64,000 nt of DNA from Giardia intestinalis (lineage: Eukaryota): assembly GCA_000002435.2 (NCBI GenBank), contig CM018792.1; one strand, given 5' to 3'. The notes beneath the pieces are model-generated. The model was not told the DNA's origin. It did not search any database and saw only the letters and a program-made list of their open reading frames with translations. Positions within the stretch are counted from its first letter, which is position 1. Every line of letters starts with the position of its first letter. The position numbers were made by a program, and so were the translations under genes. Positions 5,685 through 60,580 of this stretch are shown here, piece after piece.

Positions 5685-8600
5685 CTAAACAAACACCGGA
5701 GGCACCTTAGTCACTCCCTTTTTGTCTTGCCATGCTGGAGACACCAAGACCTTGTCACTATCAGTTGAGCTCCTTTCATAGCCTTCGTAAAACTCCTTGT
5801 TAGAGTCTGGAACAATGTGTAGCTGGTGAACAAATAGATGCATGTACTGAAGGCACGATAGCCAGATGACATCCATGTACTCATAGGAGGACGGGACGTT
5901 CAGAGCTTGACTGGCGTAGCTTGTGTTGCGAGTAAACACACGCGGAAACACTGTGAAAAACAGGGGCTTCATGAGCTTAATTATGTACAGTTCCAGCTTC
6001 TTGCTCCACTTCATGAGGATTTGAGAGTACGCTATTTCTAGAAACTGTATCATCTTTTCGGCCGGTATCTGCTTTATAAATGGATTGGCTCTCAGAAAAC
6101 GCAGGACGATGGGATTTACCAGCCCGCTTGTTACAATCTTCTCGTGTATCGTATCGATACCATCCTCACAGAGAAGCTCAGTAAGACAGTTGGTCTCACG
6201 CACGAAGATATTCTCGAGAGACAGCGGTTCCTCGTCCTCATCTACTACGCTGTTTTTTCGACAGACACTCGCGGTACTTACAGACTGCTGCATAATAGAG
6301 AGAAACGAGTAGCCATCAATATCAAGATTCAGGCCTGCAGTGTTGTCAAATAGGATGTCGAAGATGTTCAACTTGAAAAACTGTGTGATGAAGTCCACAA
6401 CGCTGATAAACATGGTTAAGAGAGTAGGGTAGTCATCACGGGTCAGCGTTCGGTAGTTGTCTGGACGTGTACTGAAGGCGTGCAATGTATCGTTGTTAAC
6501 AAATGCCTGGGGGACTTTCTCTGCAGACATGTAGCATCCAGAGTTTAGTAAAGAAAAGAGTGTGGACAAGTATGTGCTTGTCTTTTGAAGTGATGGAATA
6601 GACGGAGAGGCGATTATGGGCCCCGAAAAGGAAAAGGTCTTGATAAAATGGTCTAGTGAGGTATTGAAGCTTGCCATGTTTGGCACCTGTGGCTGTCTGG
6701 GTACTTTGGCTTTAGTGGTACGAGGAGACAGTGACACCGGGAGGCTAGCAGAAAGATCCCCGCACGACGAGCTGGGTTTGAGAGACGACGGGGCTCGTGG
6801 AGGCTGTGCATGTATTGCTGCTGATTTGGGCCTAGGAGGTAAGGGCGGCATACTAGACGTCATGGGATTCCGAGCGGGGAGCGGCGAGACCCCACTTGGA
6901 GCTGGGATGCTATCAGAAAGAATAGATGTCTTTGGCTGCGCTTGTCGACTAAGAGCACTGGTCAGCATCTTCCTTATCTCGTCACGAACACTTTTAATTT
7001 CATCCACCGCATCTGTGCGATCTCTTGAAGCACCGTCGATGAAAGAGTCACAAATCCTCAGCTCTTTGAGCTCGCGTATCTCCTTGAGCTCGCGTGAATC
7101 CTGGATTCGGCGAATCTTTGGCGGCTCTGCTGGATCAGCTGGATCATAGAGTCCATCTGTAGGAACAAATGCAGCTGGTATCCCACTCAGCGGATCTACT
7201 CCCAGACCTTCTGTTGCGCAGAGAGCTTCCACCATCGACTCTAGACGTGCAAACCGCAAATCAAAGTACTCATATGCATGCCGATAGGTCGATAGTTCCT
7301 GTAGTATGACCGTTTCAACATATGTTTGGCGCTCCAGAAGGTTGTGCAGGGTTGTGGAGATATCGGTGATTGCTGAGCCGAGACCCTGGCTGAGACCAAG
7401 GTGCTGCACAGATGCATTCAGACTATCTGTATCAATGGACCGTTTTAACTGGTGGATGGTCAGTGATTTCTGCTGGTCATTCTGTGGAGTTTGAATCCGA
7501 CCTATGCTTTCAGAAAGTATGTGTTCATTCACGGTGTGACTATCGCAGTAAGAAATCTGCATCTGAGGTGGCATCTGTAGGTCCGACCCTGTAATGCTCG
7601 GCACAGTCCCTGCCAACGCGACATTTGTGCTGATAGATATACCAAGACTGTCATCCCCTGGAGGCACAGATGCCTGGGAATCAAGCTCTAGGGCGACAGA
7701 CGGTCTCAGCGTGGATGCTGTACCTTCTAGAGGCGTGATAGCTGGAAGAACGTCGCTTGCAAGGGTGTCAACACTCCCAGTGGCTATGACATTAGATGAA
7801 TCTATATCTGCTGCCAACTGGAGATGAGGCTCAAAGTCTAGGGTACGCACCCGCTCCTTAAACACACTAATATCTGGGCCCTCGGTGTTTGCCAAGAAGC
7901 TCTGAACGGTAATGGCAGAAGCGTCCATATCGACCTCTGATAGACCAGAGATAAGCTCTGCCACGGGCAGGTCCTTGTAGATTTCGTATCTAGTGAAATC
8001 GGAAAAGACGACTTCGTTTCTGCTGAAGAAGTACGGCATGCCTCTCCTCTTGCTATTGTTGAAGAGCACATTGTTTATCCGTGCGCTCAGATCCTTAACG
8101 AGATATTTGCTATATTTGTAATTGCGACAATCTAGGTCAATTATGTAATTATTAAAAATAAATCTTATAAGAATAGGCATTTCTCTTAGACTTCCCTTGT
8201 ATGGAGACGTTCCTGTCAAGCTGGACCTGTCAACGGCTGTTGAATAGATGAGTGTCAATGGTACCTTGGTGGAGAAGGAAAACTTAGGGATAAGGGTGTA
8301 CTCCCCGAGTATCTTTTCAAGAAGAAACACGGTGTGAACTTCAGCTAAGCCACTGAGAGCTTCAGAGGGATCTGCGGTGTCTTCATTCAAGCAGACCTTA
8401 TATTTCACTGTTTGAATTAAATAGATGCATTCGTTGCATGCCAGGAGTTTTGCAGAAATAGGCGCGTCGGTGAGCTTCATGTTTTTCGGTATAACAAAGC
8501 CTTGTGCGTGCAGGCTGCCAGTGGAAACAGCCTGCACGTTACTTAGCATCGGCTTCCGGTCTTTGCCAAATTTCCACTCAAAAATAGTGAGCTTTGAGTC

Positions 8601-8915
8601 TGCGTTTAGAACACCGACGAGATGATTCGTGTGGCAGGCATCTAACCACTGTTCATTGAAGCGAGGAACAGCGAGCTCGCGGACAATAATAGAGTCCAGA
8701 GGCTCCTCCATTCTGCATGTGATCAGATAGAGACGTTGCTGCCTCTTATCGACTATGAAAACCATGGTCAATCCGTGAGACACTAAAACGTCGTTGATGG
8801 AGATCCGGACTTCGTTCTCAAAGGAGTAGTTGAAGATACCGGGTGCTCGGGTCTTCAGACGCAGGACGCCTAAGTGCTCCTTGACAACCAGGATCTCATT
8901 CCTTAAAACAAACAT
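5685..8915 (-). CDS. Hypothetical protein of about 1,076 aa with a central Pro/Ser-rich segment (PPLPPRPK...). No family could be assigned by eye.
   Basis: Long uninterrupted ORF. The first track 'M' at 8930 is a TTG. The first ATG is at 8913-8915 in the context caagacaATG. Confidence 0.5.
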   Translation of the reverse strand: MFVLRNEILVVKEHLGVLRLKTRAPGIFNYSFENEVRISINDVLVSHGLTMVFIVDKRQQRLYLITCRMEEPLDSIIVRELAVPRFNEQWLDACHTNHLVGVLNADSKLTIFEWKFGKDRKPMLSNVQAVSTGSLHAQGFVIPKNMKLTDAPISAKLLACNECIYLIQTVKYKVCLNEDTADPSEALSGLAEVHTVFLLEKILGEYTLIPKFSFSTKVPLTLIYSTAVDRSSLTGTSPYKGSLREMPILIRFIFNNYIIDLDCRNYKYSKYLVKDLSARINNVLFNNSKRRGMPYFFSRNEVVFSDFTRYEIYKDLPVAELISGLSEVDMDASAITVQSFLANTEGPDISVFKERVRTLDFEPHLQLAADIDSSNVIATGSVDTLASDVLPAITPLEGTASTLRPSVALELDSQASVPPGDDSLGISISTNVALAGTVPSITGSDLQMPPQMQISYCDSHTVNEHILSESIGRIQTPQNDQQKSLTIHQLKRSIDTDSLNASVQHLGLSQGLGSAITDISTTLHNLLERQTYVETVILQELSTYRHAYEYFDLRFARLESMVEALCATEGLGVDPLSGIPAAFVPTDGLYDPADPAEPPKIRRIQDSRELKEIRELKELRICDSFIDGASRDRTDAVDEIKSVRDEIRKMLTSALSRQAQPKTSILSDSIPAPSGVSPLPARNPMTSSMPPLPPRPKSAAIHAQPPRAPSSLKPSSSCGDLSASLPVSLSPRTTKAKVPRQPQVPNMASFNTSLDHFIKTFSFSGPIIASPSIPSLQKTSTYLSTLFSLLNSGCYMSAEKVPQAFVNNDTLHAFSTRPDNYRTLTRDDYPTLLTMFISVVDFITQFFKLNIFDILFDNTAGLNLDIDGYSFLSIMQQSVSTASVCRKNSVVDEDEEPLSLENIFVRETNCLTELLCEDGIDTIHEKIVTSGLVNPIVLRFLRANPFIKQIPAEKMIQFLEIAYSQILMKWSKKLELYIIKLMKPLFFTVFPRVFTRNTSYASQALNVPSSYEYMDVIWLSCLQYMHLFVHQLHIVPDSNKEFYEGYERSSTDSDKVLVSPAWQDKKGVTKVPPVFV

Positions 8916-8965
8916 TGTCTTGAAATTCAATGTTCCAATTTTTTGAATTTATTCTTTCTATGAGG

Positions 8966-9529
8966 CTATGGCTTGGTGAACGATATGTGAAATGTGATGT
9001 TTGGGTTTGGTTCATCAAGCACATTGTACGCCAAGATCTTGGTCCTGAAGCCACAGCAAGTCAAAAAGCCTTCAACGAGCCCCGCCACGAACATAGAGGG
9101 AAGCGCCCCGCCGTAGTTGGGGGGATAGGACGTATAGTATTCCAAAACTGGCCACTCGTCGACAAGGTAGTACTCCAAATCCTCTGTTGCTGGCTTTTTA
9201 ATGTCTGCTGCCGGCTTCCCAAAAAGAATGGGCCACACGGTCTCCTTAAGATAGTAAAGAACCGTGTCCGGTCGTGTAAGCTTGCAAACGGTGTCCTGGG
9301 TCTTTGAGCGCATTCTGTCCAGCATGCGGACGTATGTCCAGAGTGGGCGCCCAGCATCTACGCCAAGCTTGGACATCTTGTTCTCTATCTCCTCCACGGT
9401 TTTGCAGGTCCGCTGCGCATATTGAAAGTACTCGTTTAGTAGACACACCATAGAGGACAGCGGAACCGTTGCAGGGGACTCTGCAACTCCCTGCTCCAAT
9501 GCCCGCGTGAAGGTGTCTTGGAGAGCCAT
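8966..9529 (-). CDS. TRAPP complex subunit of the Bet3 fold family, closest to TRAPPC5/Trs31.
   Basis: 187 aa. Several segments align with Bet3-family landmarks: W..LFGKPA, EYYLVDEWPVL and C-terminal FVAGLVEGFLTCCGFRTKILAY (compare TRAPPC5 FTAGIVEAVLTHSGFPAKVTAH). ATG at 9527-9529 with a ggtaaaaatacATG context. Confidence 0.65.
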   Translation of the reverse strand: MALQDTFTRALEQGVAESPATVPLSSMVCLLNEYFQYAQRTCKTVEEIENKMSKLGVDAGRPLWTYVRMLDRMRSKTQDTVCKLTRPDTVLYYLKETVWPILFGKPAADIKKPATEDLEYYLVDEWPVLEYYTSYPPNYGGALPSMFVAGLVEGFLTCCGFRTKILAYNVLDEPNPNITFHISFTKP

Positions 9530-9562: not shown

Positions 9563-11065
9563 TCACAAAACCTTGCCCCGTAGGACAAGAAGAAGTCCAG
9601 AAAGCGATGCTGATAATACGCTCAGCATATTAACAGCTGTGTTAGATAATCGCAGTTTGCCCTGCCTCAGAGAAACGGCGCCACGGATACCCTCATTCCT
9701 ACCCAGCCTTCCATCTTGTAAGACACGGTTTTCTTGAAAGAGTGACCCTAGAAGAGAATCTGTAAGAGATCCTTGTATCCCTAGACAAAAGATATAGACG
9801 GCTTCGGGAAATGGTCTTCCTCCCTGCAGGCACCAAAGATATGCAATGGCTCCCGCACCAATAATAGATGCAACAGTCCCACAAAGAGACATGCCGCCGT
9901 CTGTGCCTGGAGGTGCAAGCTTGAGTCTTCCCAGGACAAAGACTCTGGACTCAGGCTTCGCTAGGCCCAGGCCAACCTCAGATGCCAAGGTATCAGCAAA
10001 TGCTTCTGCATAGTTAATGAACGTGAGAAAGAGAAAAGTCTGACGGTGTTGTCTCGGATATATGCGGGATATTAAGGAGCAAACCAGCCCTACATAGGAG
10101 TTGGAAAGAACCTGATATGCATTTCTGATAAATACATCAGCCACGAAGGTGGAGATGCGGTGCTTAAAAACTTTAGAGGCAAATAGGCTGCCGATGACAA
10201 AAAGAAATAGAGGGGTTAAGAATTCATAGCCGGCCAGCGCATGTGCAAAGAACACAAGGATTCCAGCCCGAGCCCCGTGAACAGTCAGATAATGTCTGGC
10301 TACACACAGCTCACCCATCAGGATAATAGCCCAAATAACACAGAACTTATAATAAGAATCAGCGATAATGTAATATCGCAGAACAAAGATCCCTATGAAG
10401 ACAGTTGTATTATCCCACTCGCCAGATATACGCAGAGCCTCAATGATCCCGGCAGAGACGGCGATAATGATCATCTGTGTCACGTTGAGGCCCAAATTAA
10501 GACCGAGAAAACTTTGAGATAGATAAAGACCAAGCATTGCTCCGCCGCATCCTACAAGCATACCTACAACTGTTTTTGCAGAGTCAGGCGCTCGGTAGCG
10601 CCGCCACCCAGAGGGGAAGAATGCAACTAATGAGGACAGCCCATCTCCAAACACGAGGCAAATCAAGCCCACGACACACACACGCCCGATGCTTCTGTTC
10701 CTTGTGTAGAGGAAGTTTGTTACTCCAGACCAGATCCCATATTCCAGTAAGGCGTGCTGTTTGATGATATTTTTCTTGTTCAAGCCCACTGAAACAGATC
10801 GGAGCCATGAGGTGTTCGCAAAGATGTAGAGTAAAATCCCAAATGCTATTGGCAACGCTGCTGATACCGAGGCTGCACCGATAGTCTGTGGGAGCACTGC
10901 AAGATGACATAGGTTCCCTGCCCCCGCCATCACGTGCAGACACCGCCTAGGTAATCCGCGAGGCATGACCTTCTGCAAGAGCACTAAAGTGCTGAGTAAT
11001 AAGCATACAAATGCCAGAAGAAGAGCGAGTGGTCTAACCGCCCCTTCTACGGGGAAACCCCCCAT
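9563..11065 (-). CDS. Multi-pass membrane protein of the TMEM19/DUF92 (VTE6-like) family, possibly with an additional N-terminal polyprenol-kinase-like module.
   Basis: C-terminal FADTLASEVG...PPGTDGGMSLCGTVASIIGAG matches the TMEM19/DUF92 signature (CGDTWASELG...PVGTNGGVT). An N-terminal GDGLSSLVAFFPSG resembles the GDGLA-x-x-G motif of dolichol/phytol kinases. More than ten hydrophobic helices. The track start at 11083 is GTG; the first ATG is at 11063-11065 in an attaaaaATGggg context. Confidence 0.55.
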   Translation of the reverse strand: MGGFPVEGAVRPLALLLAFVCLLLSTLVLLQKVMPRGLPRRCLHVMAGAGNLCHLAVLPQTIGAASVSAALPIAFGILLYIFANTSWLRSVSVGLNKKNIIKQHALLEYGIWSGVTNFLYTRNRSIGRVCVVGLICLVFGDGLSSLVAFFPSGWRRYRAPDSAKTVVGMLVGCGGAMLGLYLSQSFLGLNLGLNVTQMIIIAVSAGIIEALRISGEWDNTTVFIGIFVLRYYIIADSYYKFCVIWAIILMGELCVARHYLTVHGARAGILVFFAHALAGYEFLTPLFLFVIGSLFASKVFKHRISTFVADVFIRNAYQVLSNSYVGLVCSLISRIYPRQHRQTFLFLTFINYAEAFADTLASEVGLGLAKPESRVFVLGRLKLAPPGTDGGMSLCGTVASIIGAGAIAYLWCLQGGRPFPEAVYIFCLGIQGSLTDSLLGSLFQENRVLQDGRLGRNEGIRGAVSLRQGKLRLSNTAVNMLSVLSASLSGLLLVLRGKVL

Positions 11066-11204
11066 TTTTAATTTCAGTTCCACCGTACCACTTGTGGGTG
11101 CCTAGGTGGACGCCAACTTCTGAGGGTCCCACAGCAGAAACACTATGCTAGAATTATTCGTTGAACGAGGAGAAATAAAAAACTCATTCACATAGGACTT
11201 CGTG

Positions 11205-13721
11205 ATGATCTTCGTTTTGCTTTTTCTTTTAGGCGGAGTCTTCTTCGAGTGCACCACAGATAATGAATGTGGTGGTGATGGAGGAGTTTGTGACGTTGCA
11301 ATAAATGGGAAAAGATACTGTTCCAAGTGCGCAGGTAGCGATGCGGGAGCACGAGTGCCCATCAATGGAAAATGCAGACTGCTGAGCCTCTCACGGAGCA
11401 TATGCACAGTGCCCACGGGCAATAACCCTAATCCAGGCACGTGTACGGGCTGCATCCGTGACTTCCTCTTCTACAGGGGCGGGTGCTACCGCACGGCATC
11501 CCTGATCAACGCCATATGCAAGGAGAAGCACATCGTCGAGGAGGGGATGTACTGCGGGGCGTGCGCCATAGAGGGCGACGTCCCGATCGACGGGGTGTGC
11601 GTATCAGCAAGCACAGATAGCTCTGGAAACACGTGCGACAAGGGCGTGTGCACGACATGCGCAAGCGGATACTTCTTCCACTACGGGTCATGCTACAAAT
11701 TCGGAGGATCTCCAGGCAGCACTGTGTGTCCTAAGCCAACTAGCACTACTGGCTCTGTCTGTGATTCTTGCGGGTCGAAGTTCGTCAAGAACCCCAGTGC
11801 GAGCCCATCTGCCACCTCCTGCCTCGCGTGCTACGGCCTGGACGGGACCCTCTTCTGCGAGCGCTGCCGGATGAACGTGCTCACGAGCGCAGACGTGAAG
11901 CCCACTCTGTGCACACAGTGCAAAATAGGCTACGTGCCCGTGGATGGTCGTTGTGTGTCAACTTACTCTGCCACCTCGGCTCTTGCAGGGTGCTCTACCT
12001 ATAGCGGTAATGAGAATACAAAGGGACTTTGCGAAACGTGCTCCTCCGGCTACATGCTCTTCTACGGGAGCTGCTACTCTGTCAACGGCCCCCTCGCCCA
12101 GGCCATCTGCAAGACCGAGAACCAGATCTACCTTGGGGGAAGGGTCTTCTGCAAGCAGTGCGCCCAGGCAGACCACTACCCCATCAACGGCTTATGCATT
12201 GCTGATAAGGGATCACATACGTGCGAGGCGGGTATCTGCACAATATGCGACACCAGCACAACCCCCGTCGACAACTCCAAGGTTTTCCCGTTCTATAACG
12301 GCTGCTATGATGCAAACTCTGCAATCGGAAAGCTAATATGCCAGGAGGCGTCTAATGGAGCGTGCTCAACTTGCAATACAAACGAGACATCGAATATAAT
12401 AGCTAATCCTAATTCTGCAGATGGCCAACCAAAATGTCTTGGATGTTGGGACGAGGCAGCTACTGGGGTGGCCAACTGCGGAGGGTGTGCGACCGGCACA
12501 GACGGCGATTCCAAGATCGTCTGCAGCAAGTGCACCGACTCGACGGAACCCAAAGACAACACGTGCCCTCAGGCCCTCCCGCCCACAACGCCTGAAGGAT
12601 GCGCCGTGCAGGGCTGCCAGGCGTGCTCGAAGGACTCCCCCACGACGTGCGACGCCTGCTTCGAGCCTCTCATCATGAAAGAGGACAAGACGAAGTGCTT
12701 CGGGAGTTGCCTGGCGCTGGGCCCGGGCTACTACAACAACTCTGGGATATGCAGCCCATGCATAGAGAACTGTCTCCTTTGTACAGACGGGGCCACGTGC
12801 TCCCAGTGCGACGAAGGATATTATCTTGAACTATCGTCTGCTAATTCATCACAAGGTACTTGTAAGAAATGCGCTGCTGGCTGTTCTGCATGTAATGATG
12901 GCACTGACACTAGTTGTACAGCGTGCCTTCCTGGGTATTACATTGCAAGTGAGTCAAAAGCAAATAGAGCTGCAAAGTGTGTTCTATGTAACACTACTGA
13001 AAGCGACTACACTGGAATTCCAAATTGTATCGCTTGCTTTAGTACCGTAGGAAACAATGGGGCAAAGAATGTTAGGTGCAGTCAGTGCGAAGAAGGATAT
13101 ATTAAAAAACACAATGGATCTCAAGTTGTTTGTGAGCCTCCAACTCCAGAATGTAATGCCGCAATGTGCTCGGTTTGTGTTGAAAATAACCCAGATCGTT
13201 GTGAGCACTGCACGACCGGCGCGTACCTCTGCCCGCGGACGGCGGCGTGCACGAAGGACTGCGCCAGCTGCGGGGGCTCGATGTACCCCGACGAGGACCT
13301 CGGGGAGTGCCAGCCGTGCGACATCGCGAACTGCCGGGTCTGCGCGACGGGGCTCAAGTGCGAGAGCTGCGCGGAGAGCGCCGTCCCCATCTCCCCGGAC
13401 GTCTACCACACGGCGTGCATGGGCTGCAGCGACACCGGGGGCATGGACGGCTGGGTGGGCCTCGCGGGGTGCACGACCTGCGAGCTGACCGACAAGGGCG
13501 GCGGGAGCGTCAACTGCCTCGACCCTGGCTACTACCGGCGGGGCGGGCTCGGCGGGGGAGCAATCGCCGCCATCGTCATCGTCGTCCTCCTCGTCCTGGC
13601 CGTCGCCGGCTTCCTCGTCTGGTGGTTCGTCTTCAGGAGGGGCGGCCGGCCCAAGCGCGGGGCGAAGTACACATCGCTCATGCGGGGCGAGTCCTACGAC
13701 TACCGCCAGTCTCTAATATGA
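11205..13721 (+). CDS. High-cysteine membrane protein of the VSP-like family: signal peptide, many CXXC and GGCY repeats, a C-terminal transmembrane helix and a short basic tail. This is the non-VSP 'HCMP' type; the tail is not CRGKA.
   Basis: Signal peptide MIFVLLFLLGGVFFEC. There are more than 25 CXXC motifs. GGCY-type repeats include YRGGCYRT, HYGSCYKF, FYGSCYSV and FYNGCYDA. Transmembrane helix AIAAIVIVVLLVLAVAGFLVWWFVF followed by RRGGRPKRGAKY... The ATG is at 11205, directly after the GTG used by the ORF track. Confidence 0.75.
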   Translation: MIFVLLFLLGGVFFECTTDNECGGDGGVCDVAINGKRYCSKCAGSDAGARVPINGKCRLLSLSRSICTVPTGNNPNPGTCTGCIRDFLFYRGGCYRTASLINAICKEKHIVEEGMYCGACAIEGDVPIDGVCVSASTDSSGNTCDKGVCTTCASGYFFHYGSCYKFGGSPGSTVCPKPTSTTGSVCDSCGSKFVKNPSASPSATSCLACYGLDGTLFCERCRMNVLTSADVKPTLCTQCKIGYVPVDGRCVSTYSATSALAGCSTYSGNENTKGLCETCSSGYMLFYGSCYSVNGPLAQAICKTENQIYLGGRVFCKQCAQADHYPINGLCIADKGSHTCEAGICTICDTSTTPVDNSKVFPFYNGCYDANSAIGKLICQEASNGACSTCNTNETSNIIANPNSADGQPKCLGCWDEAATGVANCGGCATGTDGDSKIVCSKCTDSTEPKDNTCPQALPPTTPEGCAVQGCQACSKDSPTTCDACFEPLIMKEDKTKCFGSCLALGPGYYNNSGICSPCIENCLLCTDGATCSQCDEGYYLELSSANSSQGTCKKCAAGCSACNDGTDTSCTACLPGYYIASESKANRAAKCVLCNTTESDYTGIPNCIACFSTVGNNGAKNVRCSQCEEGYIKKHNGSQVVCEPPTPECNAAMCSVCVENNPDRCEHCTTGAYLCPRTAACTKDCASCGGSMYPDEDLGECQPCDIANCRVCATGLKCESCAESAVPISPDVYHTACMGCSDTGGMDGWVGLAGCTTCELTDKGGGSVNCLDPGYYRRGGLGGGAIAAIVIVVLLVLAVAGFLVWWFVFRRGGRPKRGAKYTSLMRGESYDYRQSLI

Positions 13722-15379: not shown

Positions 15380-17407
15380 TTAAATTTTGAAAAGATTCGC
15401 CATCTCCAGCAATAGCGGCAACAGTGGTTCGAGGTGTGAAGCACCTTTATTACTCTGCAATCTGGAGTGCAGGCTTTCGTACAATGCACTTGTCTGAGGC
15501 TGTTTTTTAACGGCTTCTGGAAGAAGGGAATATGCCTTAAAAGCAAGGCTGTCCTCTGGGATTGCTGGTGGAGAAGCCTGGACTTGTGGTGTCACAAGTG
15601 TCGCCTCCACTTGCTCGGTTTTTGGTGTCTGTTGATCAGCTGTGCAACTATCTATAAGTCCACCTGAAACACTAGCTCTGAGCTCCTCAACCAGACGTGG
15701 AGCATCTGGAGTCCCAAGTGCCATCAGTATGGATTCTGAAAGCCCAACGTCACACTGAGGTGATTGTAAAAAGCGCCCTGGATACGCGGCCCGGGGATCA
15801 GCCAGTCCCGAAATGGCAGAAACGGTAAGCCTATCGCGAATGCCTGTGTGCCCTCTCTCGTTACCTGCAGGCATTCCAGATGTGGAGAGGCCCAAGTTCA
15901 CGTTCACTCCAACGCTTCCAGCTAGGGAGCGAGTGAAGGCGTACTTGGAATGTGATAAGCTCTGGCCGGTATCGATGCCCGTGACTGTCTGAGATGCTGA
16001 GGTGACCGATGCAATTGTGTCCTCCAGAAGGCTCAGATTCCCCATAGACGCTTGCGAGAGGTCAAGGCCCCCGGAGTCCTCCTTGTCTAGAACAACGGTG
16101 ATGTCACCATGTGTATTCTTCATGATCATTGGCTTGTATGCCAAGACGATGTTGACCGTGTTCTCAGTAGCAGGCGGCTGTGCAGCCTCCGGGGCTGCGT
16201 GAAGAATGCTTACACGGGTGCTTCGAGCAAGAGAGTTCGGGTGTCCGATGGCCGTAAAGATATTAGTCTCAATAAATCCTAGATTGCGTACTTCGTCACG
16301 CACAAGCTTGTGCACCTCGAATATGCTGACACGGTCCTTGGGGCGCTGGACAAGACACAGGGAAATAATGTTCTTGAGTGCGTCTGAATACTTGACACGC
16401 TTGTCCTGAAAGCTGAACTCTGCGCGATAGTTATAGCGAAGATCGTTGTCTGGAAATGGCAACCGTCTATACATCAGTCGATACAGCAATATTCCGAAGG
16501 CAAAGACATCAACAGCAGTGCCCAGGGGAAATTCAGGGTCGATCTTGATCTGCTCGGGGGCCCGGAAGCACGGGGTTGTCTTCAGCTCCAAGGACCTCAT
16601 CAAATCCTTCATCCCCTGCTCATTGTTCTTCATTAGATCTTGAAGCCTCTCGGAATCGTAAGACTCTGTGGTGCAGGATCCAAAGTCACAAAGCCTAAGA
16701 AGCTCTGGAAACTTGGTTGTGCAGCCATTATTGGCCAGTATATCGTCCAAATCATATGGCTCCAAGATCAGAATATTTTCTAACTTGAGGTCTCGATGTG
16801 AGCACCCCTTGCTGTGCAGACAGAGAATAGCAAGGGTGATGTTGTATGCAAACCTCCATATGAGTGGTTCTGGAAGAAAGACCTTGCGCTCTGAACATTT
16901 AATAAGGAGTTTGACGCAGTTCCCGCCCGAGCAATATTCAAGCAGTAGGCGGATAGTGGTGCAAGGAAGCCTTTTCATGCTATGCTTTCCCCCGTCCTGG
17001 ACTCCATGTCCCACACCGGGGACGGGGAGCGCGGAGGATGACAGCTTTAGTTCACGTTCCTGGGGCGCAAATTGTGATGATGTGATACTTGATGCTAGAT
17101 AGGACTGGGAACTGTGCATGCCATTTACGGTTAAATACTCATCAAAACACGCAAAATCTGCAGGGATATAAGTATCATCTAGAAGTAATCCGTGGAATCT
17201 AACAACACACTTTTCGTTGTTGAATCGGAGATGGAAGTAGATCTCTGTTATTGCATCATCATAAACCTTCAGGTCTGACACAGAAAGATGCTTCAATACA
17301 TACTGTTCTCCCGCACAGGATGCAGAATAAATGCGTGCAGATCCGCCCCTTGCAATCTCTTGGCCCACAATGATCTCCTTGTCTCCGAAACGCAAAATGC
17401 TATCCAT
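15380..17407 (-). CDS. Ser/Thr protein kinase of the NAK family (AAK1/Ark1/Prk1-like): N-terminal kinase domain followed by a long low-complexity C-terminal tail.
   Basis: Catalytic loop HRDLKLENILI, activation-loop LCDFGSCT, then CFRAPEQIKID...PLGTAVDVFAFGILLY. Compare the NAK consensus HRDLKVENLLL / KLCDFGSAT / YRTPEMVDLY. ATG at 17405-17407. Confidence 0.65.
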   Translation of the reverse strand: MDSILRFGDKEIIVGQEIARGGSARIYSASCAGEQYVLKHLSVSDLKVYDDAITEIYFHLRFNNEKCVVRFHGLLLDDTYIPADFACFDEYLTVNGMHSSQSYLASSITSSQFAPQERELKLSSSALPVPGVGHGVQDGGKHSMKRLPCTTIRLLLEYCSGGNCVKLLIKCSERKVFLPEPLIWRFAYNITLAILCLHSKGCSHRDLKLENILILEPYDLDDILANNGCTTKFPELLRLCDFGSCTTESYDSERLQDLMKNNEQGMKDLMRSLELKTTPCFRAPEQIKIDPEFPLGTAVDVFAFGILLYRLMYRRLPFPDNDLRYNYRAEFSFQDKRVKYSDALKNIISLCLVQRPKDRVSIFEVHKLVRDEVRNLGFIETNIFTAIGHPNSLARSTRVSILHAAPEAAQPPATENTVNIVLAYKPMIMKNTHGDITVVLDKEDSGGLDLSQASMGNLSLLEDTIASVTSASQTVTGIDTGQSLSHSKYAFTRSLAGSVGVNVNLGLSTSGMPAGNERGHTGIRDRLTVSAISGLADPRAAYPGRFLQSPQCDVGLSESILMALGTPDAPRLVEELRASVSGGLIDSCTADQQTPKTEQVEATLVTPQVQASPPAIPEDSLAFKAYSLLPEAVKKQPQTSALYESLHSRLQSNKGASHLEPLLPLLLEMANLFKI

Positions 17408-17434
17408 TCAAGAGTTTTGTCAACGAAAATAAAA
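17408..17434. promoter_or_regulatory. 27-bp shared divergent promoter region between the NAK-family kinase and PME-1 genes. Contains A-rich initiator-like sequence (caacgaaaataaaaATG).
   Basis: The two start codons are 27 bp apart on opposite strands. Giardia promoters are known to be very short, A/T-rich initiators close to the ATG. Confidence 0.4.
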
Positions 17435-18547
17435 ATGGGCCATCCACTGCTTCTCAAAACAGCCAACCTGGACCCTGTTCCTGAGGATAGACCAGGGACA
17501 GAAGCTCCTCCAGCACCTGCCTCTGCGGCCATCACTTTCTCTACTTCATATACAGAATGTTATGATAGCAGACTTTTCGTTGAGGCAAACGGACAAAAAG
17601 TCAACGTATACACTAAGGGGGTTTTTGATGACGTGCCTCTAATTTTCTTCGTCCACGGGGCAGGCTTTTCTGGTCTTTCCTTTGGGCCTCTAGTTAAGCG
17701 TGTGCACACAGAAGGATTCTGTGCAGCCCTGGATTTGCGCGGCCACGGTCTTACGGTCAATGAGGATGGTACTACTGCACTAGGAGATAGCATGACAATC
17801 GAGAATTTTGTAGCTGACTGTAAAGCAGTTTTGGACCATCTTTTCACACATATGTACAAGCCTGCAAATGAAAATGCCCAGAAAAAGTCTATTCTGCTGT
17901 GTGGTCACTCTCTTGGCGGGAGTATCGTTGCGCGGCTTGCAGTTGAGCTCCAGGAGTCCTATGACATCCAGCTCTGCTGCCTGATTGATATCAATGAGAC
18001 GGTGGCAATAGGTGCAATTCCCAACATGATGTCTGTTTTGAGGAAGAAGCCGCTTGCATTCTCCTCTGAGGAGGCCCTGGTGAGTTGGCTACTGTCGTCC
18101 CACACACTCTACAGCAGGTCTTCTGCGCTTTTCCAGGCTCCTGGGTTGATTCACGGGTCGCAGCATCCAAACTCCGGAAGGGTCATTGCAGATCTGATCA
18201 ACTCCGACGATAACTGGCGGGACTGGTTCATCGGATTGAATGACAACTTTCTTGGCAAATACCCTGGCTACAAGCTGCTCTTTATAGGTGGAATGGAGAA
18301 GCTTGACAAAGAGACGGAAATAGCGCATATGCAGGGCAAGCTTTCGATTGAGGTGGTACCCAACAGTGGTCACAATCTCCATGAAGATGACCCCAATACC
18401 GTGGCCTTTTACTTCATCAAGTACTTACGCCGAATGCATCTCTCGAAGAAGCTGATTCACAAACCCTTCGACTTCAAGAAGAAAGACCCCGATGAGGATC
18501 CAATTCCCCTGGAAGAAATCAAGCGTCTCTACGGCAGTGGGCAATGA
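17435..18547 (+). CDS. Protein phosphatase methylesterase 1 (PME-1/PPE1), an alpha/beta hydrolase.
   Basis: VHGAGFSGLSF (human HGGGHSALSW), nucleophile elbow LCGHSLGGSIV (human IGHSMGGAIA), and WRDWFIGLNDNFLGKYPGYKLLFIGGMEKLDKETEIAHMQGKLSIEVVPNSGHNLHEDDPNTVA, which is nearly colinear with human WDGWFRGLSNLFLSCPIPKLLLLAGVDRLDKDLTIGQMQGKFQMQVLPQCGHAVHEDAPDKVA. The track start at 17288 would overlap the kinase CDS; I prefer the aaaaATG at 17435. Confidence 0.8.
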   Translation: MGHPLLLKTANLDPVPEDRPGTEAPPAPASAAITFSTSYTECYDSRLFVEANGQKVNVYTKGVFDDVPLIFFVHGAGFSGLSFGPLVKRVHTEGFCAALDLRGHGLTVNEDGTTALGDSMTIENFVADCKAVLDHLFTHMYKPANENAQKKSILLCGHSLGGSIVARLAVELQESYDIQLCCLIDINETVAIGAIPNMMSVLRKKPLAFSSEEALVSWLLSSHTLYSRSSALFQAPGLIHGSQHPNSGRVIADLINSDDNWRDWFIGLNDNFLGKYPGYKLLFIGGMEKLDKETEIAHMQGKLSIEVVPNSGHNLHEDDPNTVAFYFIKYLRRMHLSKKLIHKPFDFKKKDPDEDPIPLEEIKRLYGSGQ

Positions 18548-18603: not shown

Positions 18604-20067
18604 TTACTTAAGCTCTAAAGGAGTTGCATGCTCGCGCATCCTCCTCTCGTCGTGGGCCCACACACGAGCGATGGGCCTTGTCGACTTCAGGTTAACCTCT
18701 CTAAGCATGAAGTAGGTGTATGTTTCGTGCAATGCACGCGAAACGTTTGCCATGTGCTTAACCGTCAGTCCGTACTTGTTATAAAAGCCAATATTCGCGA
18801 GCTTTGAATTTTCTAAATACAGATAAGCCTTGCAAAGATCTGTCACCGCACATGCCCAGTCCATGAGGTAGCCACCAAGCCCGTAGCCTTTGAATGCGAC
18901 AGATGCTGCAATCCAACAGATGTAGAAGTGGTTCTCAAGACTGCCGCAGTGGAGGCTGTGCATTTTTTCTCCCGCTGAAAGACAACCAAGGTTTTTGGTA
19001 GAAATGCCCGCCGACGTGTATATCTTAACGAGATTTGCCGTGTTTCCCCAATATCCAGACTCTTGGCCCGGTGGATTGCCGATCATGCAGGCTGAAAAGG
19101 AATCATAGTCTACTTGATTGGGATATTGCTCTGCAACCTCAGACCTCGCCATCTGCAGCACCTGGCGGCCCTTGTTGTCACAACTCACAGTAGCAACGCA
19201 GAGACCGCGGTAGGAAGACACTGAGAACAGGTATCTAGTCAAATCGAAGAGCAGCGGAGCCAGGTGCTGGCTCTGGGGTTGAATAACTATTTTCAACGGG
19301 TCATCGAGGAACGCGCGGCTCAGCATAGTCGCCCCCATGTTGAACTCTAATGGACGGTCCACCTGGAGCATGCGGTGGAGACTTCCGAACTTGTCGAGAG
19401 TGGGGGCGATTGTGGCGCAGCGTGGATTGTTTATCAAAATGAGATCTTCTATATCCTCATATAGATTGAGGAGTAGGTTTTCGGGCCACAGGACATAGCC
19501 CGTGTGTGTAGGATGGCTGTTGATTTTAGTAAACCCTATCCCCTTGAGGTGCCGCTTGAAACTCGGACTGACAGCAAGTTCGTGGGCAAAAAGAGGAACG
19601 CCCTTCAGACAGGCCTGGAGAAGCGGTTGGTAAAGAAGGGCGTAGACCTTGCTCACTTCCATGTCTGCCTCGCTACATGCCAGGAAGGTGATGACCAGGT
19701 AGTCAGAGTACTCGACTCCTGTAACCTTTGAGATCAAGGGTACTACGTCGGATTTGAAGGGGTAGACCAGGTTGATATTGGCGTCCTTGAGCTCTCCTGT
19801 GAGCTTGACCTGAGAGCGAAGGTAAGTTGGCAGGTACAGACAGGCGCCCTCGATATGGGTGGTGTTGACACTAAGGTGAAAAGACTCGGTGGGAGGAAGA
19901 GAGTGGGAGCCCACGAGAACGGTGCGGTGGAAAGACGATTGGCAAAGCAGATAGTAGATTGACTTGGTGTAGTCCAAAACCCGCGGCCTGTTGCTTGCCA
20001 CGAGGTTATTTACCATTCTTCGGATGTTCTTCTCGTATATCTTCTCGGGTAATAGCGTTGCAAACAT
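18604..20067 (-). CDS. Hypothetical protein with a C-terminal GNAT-type N-acetyltransferase domain.
   Basis: A GNAT motif A-like FKGYGLGGYLMDWA sits near the C-terminus. The N-terminal ~350 aa are unassigned. The track start at 20076 is GTG; the first ATG is at 20065-20067. Confidence 0.45.
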   Translation of the reverse strand: MFATLLPEKIYEKNIRRMVNNLVASNRPRVLDYTKSIYYLLCQSSFHRTVLVGSHSLPPTESFHLSVNTTHIEGACLYLPTYLRSQVKLTGELKDANINLVYPFKSDVVPLISKVTGVEYSDYLVITFLACSEADMEVSKVYALLYQPLLQACLKGVPLFAHELAVSPSFKRHLKGIGFTKINSHPTHTGYVLWPENLLLNLYEDIEDLILINNPRCATIAPTLDKFGSLHRMLQVDRPLEFNMGATMLSRAFLDDPLKIVIQPQSQHLAPLLFDLTRYLFSVSSYRGLCVATVSCDNKGRQVLQMARSEVAEQYPNQVDYDSFSACMIGNPPGQESGYWGNTANLVKIYTSAGISTKNLGCLSAGEKMHSLHCGSLENHFYICWIAASVAFKGYGLGGYLMDWACAVTDLCKAYLYLENSKLANIGFYNKYGLTVKHMANVSRALHETYTYFMLREVNLKSTRPIARVWAHDERRMREHATPLELK

Positions 20068-20224
20068 GGTTACCACGGACTGTTAAAAAGCGGTTTGTAT
20101 ATTTCACTGGATATGGCATATCGGAAATTGCGCCACATTCAGCTAAAAGTGTCTCAAAAAATCCGCAGTCAAGTGCTTTCTTGCATTTTTATTCATCTGG
20201 AACGGCGAGCAACGAAAAAACAGG

Positions 20225-59812: not shown

Positions 59813-60580
59813 TTACAGGACACCCACTCCCGTGTAGATATTACGTTCTAAGTACTTCATAACCGTCTCCAACTCACGGGTAAGCATGCCGGCGTTCTCG
59901 GTGAACTCTGCCCTCTCCTCCTCAATTGCGCGATTAAGGTCGGAGAACCCAGCAACAATCGTCTCGCGGCACTCAAAGAGGCCACGCTTGTGTCTCTCGA
60001 CAAGGGACTTGATCTCATCCTTGTACGACGCAATCACGGAATGGTAGGCGCGCTTCGATGACTCAATGGACTCAATGAGGCGCATAAAGTCCTTCTCAAA
60101 CTTCCCCCTGATGTTGTCCACACGTAGCTCGCGGTCATCGATTGCGGCGTTGAGCTTCTCAGCGAGGCCCTCCATCGCGGTTCCATACTCTTTGCGGAAC
60201 TCCTCGATATCCTGCTGCCTGCGGAGCACCTGCTCGTTGACCGCGTCGTAGAGGTGCTGGTACCTCTCGAGCATCGCCTGGAATTGAACCTGGGTCTCGC
60301 TCGTGTGCTGCTCGATCAGATTGTTGAGGGCAGTGACGTGATTTGTGATGTGCTCATCCAGCATCTTGTCCATTGCGTGGCTCGCCTCGGCGCGCTGGAG
60401 CGTCTGCTTCTGGATGAGGATGTCAAGATCCTTCACGGCCTGGTGGAGCAGCTGGAGTCTCGATTCTAGGGTATGTTTCTGGTCGTTGTACGAGAGCTCG
60501 AACTCTACCATGAACTCGGAAGTGTGCGAGTCGATGACATTGAGCCTAGACTTCGTGGGGTCGGCGCGGACGGAGAACAT
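59813..60580 (-). CDS. Coiled-coil cytoskeletal protein of the SF-assemblin / beta-giardin-like (striated fibre assemblin) type.
   Basis: 255 aa, almost entirely heptad/29-residue-periodic coiled coil. Size and periodicity resemble beta-giardin/SALP-1. ATG at 60578-60580 in a gagttaaaaATG context. Confidence 0.45.
   Translation of the reverse strand: MFSVRADPTKSRLNVIDSHTSEFMVEFELSYNDQKHTLESRLQLLHQAVKDLDILIQKQTLQRAEASHAMDKMLDEHITNHVTALNNLIEQHTSETQVQFQAMLERYQHLYDAVNEQVLRRQQDIEEFRKEYGTAMEGLAEKLNAAIDDRELRVDNIRGKFEKDFMRLIESIESSKRAYHSVIASYKDEIKSLVERHKRGLFECRETIVAGFSDLNRAIEEERAEFTENAGMLTRELETVMKYLERNIYTGVGVL

Follow-up and report, generated by a model that had tools for sequence, protein, structure and literature searches.

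Here we present an analysis of a gene on the minus strand (9563-11065) of a 64,000-nucleotide stretch of Giardia intestinalis DNA (assembly GCA_000002435.2, contig CM018792.1), which at its full length is referred to below as the window. The gene encodes a membrane protein of 500 amino acids in which two kinase-like modules are joined. Residues 1-246 are a minimal, eight-helix member of the COG0170 family of dolichol, phytol and prenol kinases, and residues 247-486 are, judged by sequence, a divergent but clear member of the DUF92 family, not a TIGR00297 equivalog. The kinase-DUF92 architecture has already been described computationally in archaea and is common in bacteria, and the Giardia protein is a eukaryotic member of it. 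We put the protein forward as a putative bifunctional prenol kinase and prenyl-phosphate kinase, a reading whose chances we place a little above even. It draws on the fusion itself, on the shared orientation of the two predicted active sites, on catalytic residues kept from one Giardia species to another and on the gene neighbourhoods of prokaryotic fusions.

Two modules, their motifs and their topology

The open reading frame (ORF) comprises 500 codons and a TGA stop, with zero internal stops, and over its full length matches a database entry named 'putative Membrane protein [Giardia duodenalis]' at 100 % identity. The protein and its modules are placed as follows:

9563-11065, minus strand: complete coding sequence, 500 amino acids plus TGA stop; 16-helix polytopic protein with two kinase-like modules (ORF list, translation, AF2 helices, lysine/arginine distribution)
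10328-11065, minus strand: N-terminal module, residues 1-246, eight transmembrane helices, COG0170-type dolichol/phytol (prenol) kinase-like
9608-10327, minus strand: C-terminal module, residues 247-486, eight transmembrane helices, DUF92/TMEM19/VTE6 (phytyl-phosphate-kinase family; Pfam PF01940, TIGR00297, invariant residues)

A fusion of a DolK/VTE5-like N-terminus with a DUF92 C-terminus had been suggested in an earlier note, made from the sequence alone, and is supported by the N-terminal profile search, the hhalign comparison and the Pfam match described below; DUF92, which the note had placed in the C-terminal third, spans the C-terminal half. Pfam PF01940 matches residues 247-486 with an E-value of 2.4e-43 and 148.8 bits (cut-off 27.5), over model positions 3-250 of 251. 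Against TIGR00297, the equivalog model for prokaryotes, the protein scores 73.6 bits and does not reach the cut-off of 205.85.

For residues 1-246, neither Pfam nor NCBIfam returned a match even at an E-value of 10, Pfam CTP_transf_1 (PF01148) included. Pfam is also silent on three of the four stand-alone homologues of the module, and since known relatives fail in the same way, the missing match is weak evidence against membership. Thus, of the two kinds of family model named in the earlier note, DUF92 was matched and CTP_transf_1 was not, though profile search and profile comparison do give a polyprenol-kinase signal. An exhaustive HMMER search of 1.84 billion representative proteins was run with a profile of five Giardia N-terminal halves. 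It recovered the G. duodenalis cluster and a 467-residue protein of G. muris (E 2e-11), together with four stand-alone proteins that are 217-246 residues long (E 2e-5 to 8e-4, query positions 13-229); three of these were covered almost end to end and the weakest only across its C-terminal half. One of the four passes Pfam CTP_transf_1 (37.3 bits), and another has a cluster-mate named 'phytol kinase' by JGI. In an alignment of ten sequences that includes stand-alone homologues, R40, H44, G140-D141-G142, K164, G168, E209 and D218-N219 are invariant and collinear.

Furthermore, hhalign aligned a Giardia-only profile (G. duodenalis group plus G. muris) with a profile of 15 stand-alone proteins, among them several with the JGI name 'dolichol kinase' or 'phytol kinase', at 97.1 % probability (E 6.8e-11, 181 columns). 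As a negative control, the Giardia N-terminal profile was compared with a 30-sequence DUF92 profile, likewise polytopic and of similar composition, and gave 0.3 %. The control also rules out the N-terminal module as a duplicated DUF92 domain. At the structural level, the model of the N-terminal domain is confident (predicted local distance difference test 86.7), its top structural match is CDP-archaeol synthase, and the predicted module has the CdsA/CarS-type intramembrane fold. A Foldseek search of the PDB with the full model gave nothing significant, with CdsA among the weak matches only, and sequence searches of the PDB with the Giardia profiles and a wider family profile gave nothing usable.

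These results bear directly on a deflationary account, which puts the GDG motif down to chance and takes the N-terminal half for no more than a hydrophobic stretch that a diplomonad TMEM19 has gained in this lineage. The half does lack a Pfam, NCBIfam or PDB-sequence match, as such an extension might; set against this are the significant, motif-collinear matches to stand-alone kinases, the hhalign contrast of 97.1 % with 0.3 % and the confident domain model with its CDP-archaeol synthase match. GDG stands within a collinear match of 200 residues to stand-alone dolichol/phytol-kinase-like proteins, and so is not fortuitous. Additionally, the 467-residue protein of G. muris carries the same two modules, with DUF92 at residues 241-459, and its motif is nearer to the canonical form (GDGVAGL...NKQKTILGS). 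We therefore regard the extension account as refuted, and leave it hardly any probability.

Motifs were assessed by column statistics over 92 non-Giardia family members for the N-terminal module and over 60 non-Giardia domains (30 stand-alone and 30 fused) for DUF92:

10934-10948, minus strand: R40-R-C-L-H44, N-terminal R-K/R-x-x-H motif at the predicted cytosolic start of helix 2 (R40 and H44 invariant in 10 sequences)
10607-10648, minus strand: GDGLSSLVAFFPSG, residues 140-153, degenerate DxxAxxxGxxxG nucleotide (cytidine triphosphate, CTP) loop (column statistics, hhalign)
10562-10576, minus strand: K164-T-V-V-G168, K-(S/T)-x-x-G element after the CTP loop (K164 89/92, G168 92/92)
10409-10441, minus strand: E209-ALRISGEW-D218-N219, C-terminal acidic motif (E209 87/92, D218 85/92, N219 85/92)
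9971-9994, minus strand: D358-TLASEVG, residues 358-365, DUF92 signature (D358, T359, E363 and G365 each 60/60)
9893-9913, minus strand: PPGTDGG, residues 385-391, DUF92 loop motif, predicted cytosolic (G387 and G390 60/60, T388 58/60)
9746-9763, minus strand: T-D436-SLLG, second acidic DUF92 motif (S437 57/60, L439 54/60)
9629-9643, minus strand: N475-TAV-N479, C-terminal DUF92 motif where the last helix begins (N475 and N479 each 56/56)

The three motifs quoted in the earlier note, GDGLSSLVAFFPSG, DTLASEVG and PPGTDGG, are thus all present, at 10607-10648, 9971-9994 and 9893-9913. Among relatives of the N-terminal module, G140, D141 and the glycine at position 148 occur in 92 of 92 sequences and G142 in 91; the Giardia loop region keeps D141, K164, T165 and G168. 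By analogy, D218 may be the second metal-binding aspartate of the CdsA-type superfamily (aspartate roles after PMC5898192). The G. duodenalis DUF92 module keeps K301, R314, N322, D358-T-x-x-S-E-x-G365, G387-T-x-G390, S393, G396, N475 and N479, each present in 52-60 of the 60 non-Giardia domains, and D436 is unchanged in all five Giardia sequences.

Membrane topology was derived from 16 helices taken from two predicted models, with lysine and arginine counted in the connecting segments. One side of the membrane carries 24 such residues in its loops and the other 3. R40, H44, D141, K164, E209, D218, K301, R314, D358, E363, D389, D436 and N475 all fall on the lysine/arginine-rich side or next to it, and by the positive-inside rule this face is presumably cytosolic. 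Because each module has eight helices, both predicted active sites come to lie on one face. The polytopic character that the earlier note had ascribed to the N-terminal half thus extends to eight helices per module, with both motif sets on the same side. In human dolichol kinase the CTP site is cytoplasmically oriented (PMC13586052), and the predicted cytosolic placement of both motif sets appears to agree with it.

The fusion in Giardia and in prokaryotes

The fusion is conserved in five lineages of the G. duodenalis group and in G. muris, with the conserved residues retained. Orthologues in the other lineages of the G. duodenalis group are 65-84 % identical. Some assemblage-B models (P0003 and P0049) are annotated with 538 residues, against 500 for P0051; the 38-residue N-terminal extension is found in no other lineage, and the start codon of the longer models is probably over-called.

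Outside Giardia, Makarova et al. in 2015 reported several proteins of the arCOG02245/COG1836/DUF92 family with an N-terminal match to COG0170 Sec59 (HHpred 99.85 %), for example Methanosarcina barkeri Mbar_A3310, with both catalytic aspartates conserved; the arCOG02245 family was linked to uppS and a kinase step in isoprenoid biosynthesis was proposed (PMC5898192). The earlier note had known of no characterisation of this architecture: that holds for biochemistry, where we know of no characterised member, but not for computational description, and the architecture is widespread in bacteria. We collected more than 40 fusions among many prokaryotic proteins of ~400-460 residues that have the same order, N-terminal kinase followed by C-terminal DUF92, and similar motif spacing. 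Their hosts are Acidobacteriota (Vicinamibacterales, Thermoanaerobaculia), haloarchaea (Halapricum, Haloarchaeobius, Salinirussus) and unassigned metagenomic lineages. The neighbouring genes of six prokaryotic fusions were examined:

P0186: SQS_PSY (squalene/phytoene synthase) immediately upstream, same strand
P0208: UbiA prenyltransferase, divergent, 20 bp away
P0140: UbiA, overlapping downstream
P0187: UbiA, 12 bp downstream
P0188 (Halapricum salinum): two cis-prenyltransferase copies, one adjacent and one 2 kb away
P0239: no isoprenoid neighbour

In five of the six, then, a neighbour makes or uses prenyl diphosphates, as would be expected if the fusion delivers a prenyl diphosphate. The SQS_PSY linkage comes from one clade, the UbiA linkage from three and the cis-prenyltransferase linkage from Halapricum salinum. 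The loci concerned are L001 (4304-6659), L002 (485-3218), L005 (6001-8210), L006 (5001-7312) and L008 (2091-6347), with none in L009.

As to origin, the best-scoring relatives of the N-terminal module in the collected set are stand-alone kinases (a JGI 'phytol kinase', a sequence from a Nonionella stella transcriptome and metagenomic proteins), and those of the C-terminal module are a haloarchaeal-type fusion and a eukaryotic-looking stand-alone DUF92 protein. Since no single prokaryotic fusion in that set scores best for both halves, transfer of a ready-made prokaryotic fusion into Giardia is not supported by these sequence comparisons, in which the branches are long. No other eukaryotic fusion turned up, in searches where the Giardia-only profile was too divergent to recover even the bacterial fusions.

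Proposed function and its alternatives

VTE5-type kinases use CTP to phosphorylate an isoprenoid alcohol, whose monophosphate is then the substrate of VTE6, a kinase of the DUF92 family (PMC5694494, PMC10849223, PMC9782597). In the mechanism that we propose, the N-terminal module would use CTP or another nucleoside triphosphate to convert a membrane isoprenoid alcohol to its monophosphate, and the C-terminal module, like plant VTE6, would phosphorylate this product again, yielding the prenyl diphosphate. The whole salvage route, from prenol through prenyl phosphate to prenyl diphosphate, would thereby reside in one polypeptide, with the fusion channelling the monophosphate from one cytosolic active site to the other beside it. 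The substrate could be farnesol or geranylgeraniol, feeding protein prenylation and the cis-prenyltransferase; the resemblance of the N-terminal module to short VTE5-like kinases favours this kind of salvage, and the UbiA and SQS_PSY contexts agree with it. Alternatively, it could be the C55-C60 polyprenol or dolichol of Giardia; the first step would then yield the dolichyl phosphate needed for the synthesis of GlcNAc2-PP-Dol and glycosylphosphatidylinositol. The adjacency of archaeal fusions to cis-prenyltransferase favours this option, as does the dolichol kinase activity taken up next. Phytol is an unlikely substrate, because Giardia has neither chlorophyll nor tocopherol.

The dolichol option can also be taken by itself. 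Giardia reportedly has a CTP-dependent dolichol kinase activity and no SEC59 orthologue, and the N-terminal module could be that orphan enzyme, acting on C55-60 dolichol or polyprenol only and making dolichyl phosphate, with DUF92 serving a separate, non-sequential role, the one that TMEM19 has in eukaryotes without photosynthesis. Among the matches of the exhaustive search there is no further Giardia protein of the N-terminal family, as this account would have it. The word-indexed homologue searches omitted proteins of the query family itself (the full-length Giardia protein in one, G. muris P0039 in another), so their lists are unusable for the absence of a paralogue. The cis-prenyltransferase neighbours of the haloarchaeal fusions and the link between arCOG02245 and uppS (PMC5898192) also fit a dolichol kinase, as does the bacterial type of the Giardia cis-prenyltransferase (PMC12998183). 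The nearest relatives of the module, however, are short proteins of the VTE5/phytol-kinase type, with no long Sec59/DOLK-type protein at an E-value of 1e-3; dolichyl phosphate needs no second phosphate, so that the account offers no reason for the recurring kinase-DUF92 fusion; nor does it account for the UbiA and SQS_PSY genes nearby. We consider a role confined to dolichol phosphorylation unlikely.

Several observations weigh against the bifunctional reading, and most concern the integrity of the N-terminal module. The dolichol-kinase CTP motif is DxxAxxxGxxxGx8KKTxEG (PMC13586052), and here the resemblance claimed in the earlier note is partial: GDG, K164 and G168 are kept, and the loop is degenerate at the invariant glycine. 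This glycine, seven residues after the aspartate and present in 92 of 92 relatives, is alanine in three G. duodenalis lineages, serine in two and proline in G. muris; the corresponding residue is essential in the yeast (G420) and human (G443) dolichol kinases (PMC13586052). The protein described here has A148. The hhalign alignment places a three-residue insertion in the Giardia loop. At position 144 serine replaces the usual alanine, a substitution seen in two of the 92 relatives. The N-terminal module also evolves faster than the C-terminal one: inside the G. duodenalis group its identity is 58-80 % against 71-88 %, and to G. muris 28 % against 41 %. There are departures in DUF92 too: the glycine of the G-x-R loop, found in all 60 relatives, is F312 in Giardia, and the acidic stretch preceding that loop is lost; the loop region is gapped in G. 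muris. Among prokaryotes, the N-terminal modules of five haloarchaeal fusions (P0007, P0015, P0188, P0198 and P0201) can still be recognised as homologues of the COG0170 kinases (hhalign 90.8 %, E 1.2e-6), with GDG changed to G-N-L and the K-T-x-x-G element gone; from their sequences they look dead, an example of how the first module can decay. The Giardia neighbours (a TRAPP subunit, a VSP-like protein, a PP-loop ATPase and a protein kinase) offer no functional clue. Lastly, we know of no fused protein of the kinase-DUF92 kind with a known activity.

Taken furthest, the lost glycine, the inserted residues, the faster divergence and the haloarchaeal precedent would reduce the N-terminal module to a structural partner without catalysis, be it a membrane scaffold or the mate in a pseudo-dimer, with DUF92 alone active as a kinase of prenyl phosphate or another lipid. 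Yet a change from glycine to alanine or serine is small, and R40, H44, D141, K164, E209, D218 and N219 are kept in Giardia as far as G. muris. The persistence of these polar invariants over that distance argues for selection on catalysis, unlike the situation in haloarchaea. We hold a dead N-terminal module to be quite unlikely, and read the module as one that, as far as its residues tell, keeps the polar groups expected for catalysis around an altered nucleotide loop.

Apart from plants and Plasmodium, the genes for prenol and prenyl-phosphate kinases are still spoken of as "missing" (PMC10849223, PMC13022625). The Giardia fusion is a single-gene candidate for both steps, possibly also for the orphan dolichol kinase, and is directly testable. 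A stronger version of the bifunctional reading would make this one gene both the CTP-dependent dolichol/polyprenol kinase of Giardia and the first prenyl-phosphate kinase in a non-photosynthetic eukaryote, a self-contained enzyme from prenol to prenyl diphosphate; that combination we advance only tentatively, as somewhat unlikely. In that case the altered nucleotide loop (glycine to alanine, serine or proline, plus the insertion) might shift donor specificity and render the enzyme selectively druggable. More generally, the fusion recurs in prokaryotes and is linked there to genes for UbiA, SQS_PSY and cis-prenyltransferase, which independently supports a prenyl-phosphate kinase role for DUF92/TMEM19 proteins at large; to our knowledge, no function has been assigned to human TMEM19. 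In the literature, we found nothing linking Giardia to DUF92 or to a phytol or polyprenol kinase, the sole co-mention of Giardia and TMEM19 being in an unrelated paper on ciliary genes.

Genomic setting and comparison with known systems

Giardia start sites typically lie in the context of an AT-rich initiator-like element, and one such element, AATTAAAA, stands immediately 5' of the ATG of the fusion gene:

11066-11075, minus strand: AT-rich initiator-like element GAAATTAAAA abutting the ATG (read from the sequence)

Because the element adjoins it, the ATG at 11065 is favoured as the start over the GTG at 11083. Downstream, a gene for a TRAPP-complex subunit of 187 residues (8966-9529, minus strand; PF04051, E 3e-22) has its ATG 33 nt past the stop of the fusion gene, so the genes are very tightly packed. 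On the other side, a cysteine-rich protein of 839 residues (11202-13721, plus strand), with six matches to the Giardia VSP family (PF03302) and a C-terminal transmembrane segment, is encoded divergently from the fusion gene, the two starts being ~135 nt apart. Farther along the window, a protein-kinase ORF of 675 residues (15380-17407, minus strand) and an alpha/beta-hydrolase ORF of 419 residues (17288-18547, plus strand) share ~120 nt where their 5' ends meet, and one of the two starts is probably over-called. Two ORFs, of 1081 residues (5685-8930, minus strand) and 490 residues (18604-20076, minus strand), have no Pfam match at an E-value of 1e-3. An ORF of 255 residues (59813-60580, minus strand) matches SF-assemblin/beta-giardin slightly over the cut-off (PF06705, 32.5 bits).

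Of the known systems, the prokaryotic fusions of the Mbar_A3310 type are alike in domain order, in superfamily and in having two conserved aspartates per module, and the spacing from GDG to DTxASE is ~215 residues in Giardia and ~235 in the bacterial fusions. The Giardia protein differs from them in being eukaryotic, in its length (500 against ~430-460 residues), in the absence of an operon context, in having alanine or serine for the CTP-loop glycine and a eukaryote-type insertion before the last DUF92 helix, and in that the nearest relatives of its two modules, in the sampled set, differ from each other.

The plant and cyanobacterial pair VTE5 and VTE6, Arabidopsis FOLK and Plasmodium PfPolK belong to the same two families as the halves of the Giardia fusion. 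VTE5 and VTE6 perform two sequential phosphorylations of an isoprenoid alcohol, as is proposed for the fusion, and the N-terminal module is of the short type (~220-250 residues), like the stand-alone phytol-kinase-like proteins that match it best. VTE5 and VTE6 are separate plastid polypeptides, however, and PfPolK is a lone kinase whose partner has not been identified, whereas in Giardia the two are fused.

Sec59/DOLK shares with the N-terminal module its catalytic superfamily and motif logic (DxxAxxxGxxxG...K-K-T-x-E-G). In these proteins the catalytic core lies at the C-terminal end of ~15 transmembrane helices and there is no DUF92, while the Giardia module is the minimal core only and is without the glycine reported as essential in Sec59/DOLK; the exhaustive search with the Giardia N-terminal profile returned no long protein of the Sec59/DOLK type at an E-value of 1e-3. 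More distant still are CdsA (CDP-DAG synthase, CDP-diacylglycerol synthase; 4q2e) and CarS (CDP-archaeol synthase, 5guf), which share the two-aspartate metal site, but are cytidylyltransferases and not kinases, at 12-16 % sequence identity with no significant sequence match.

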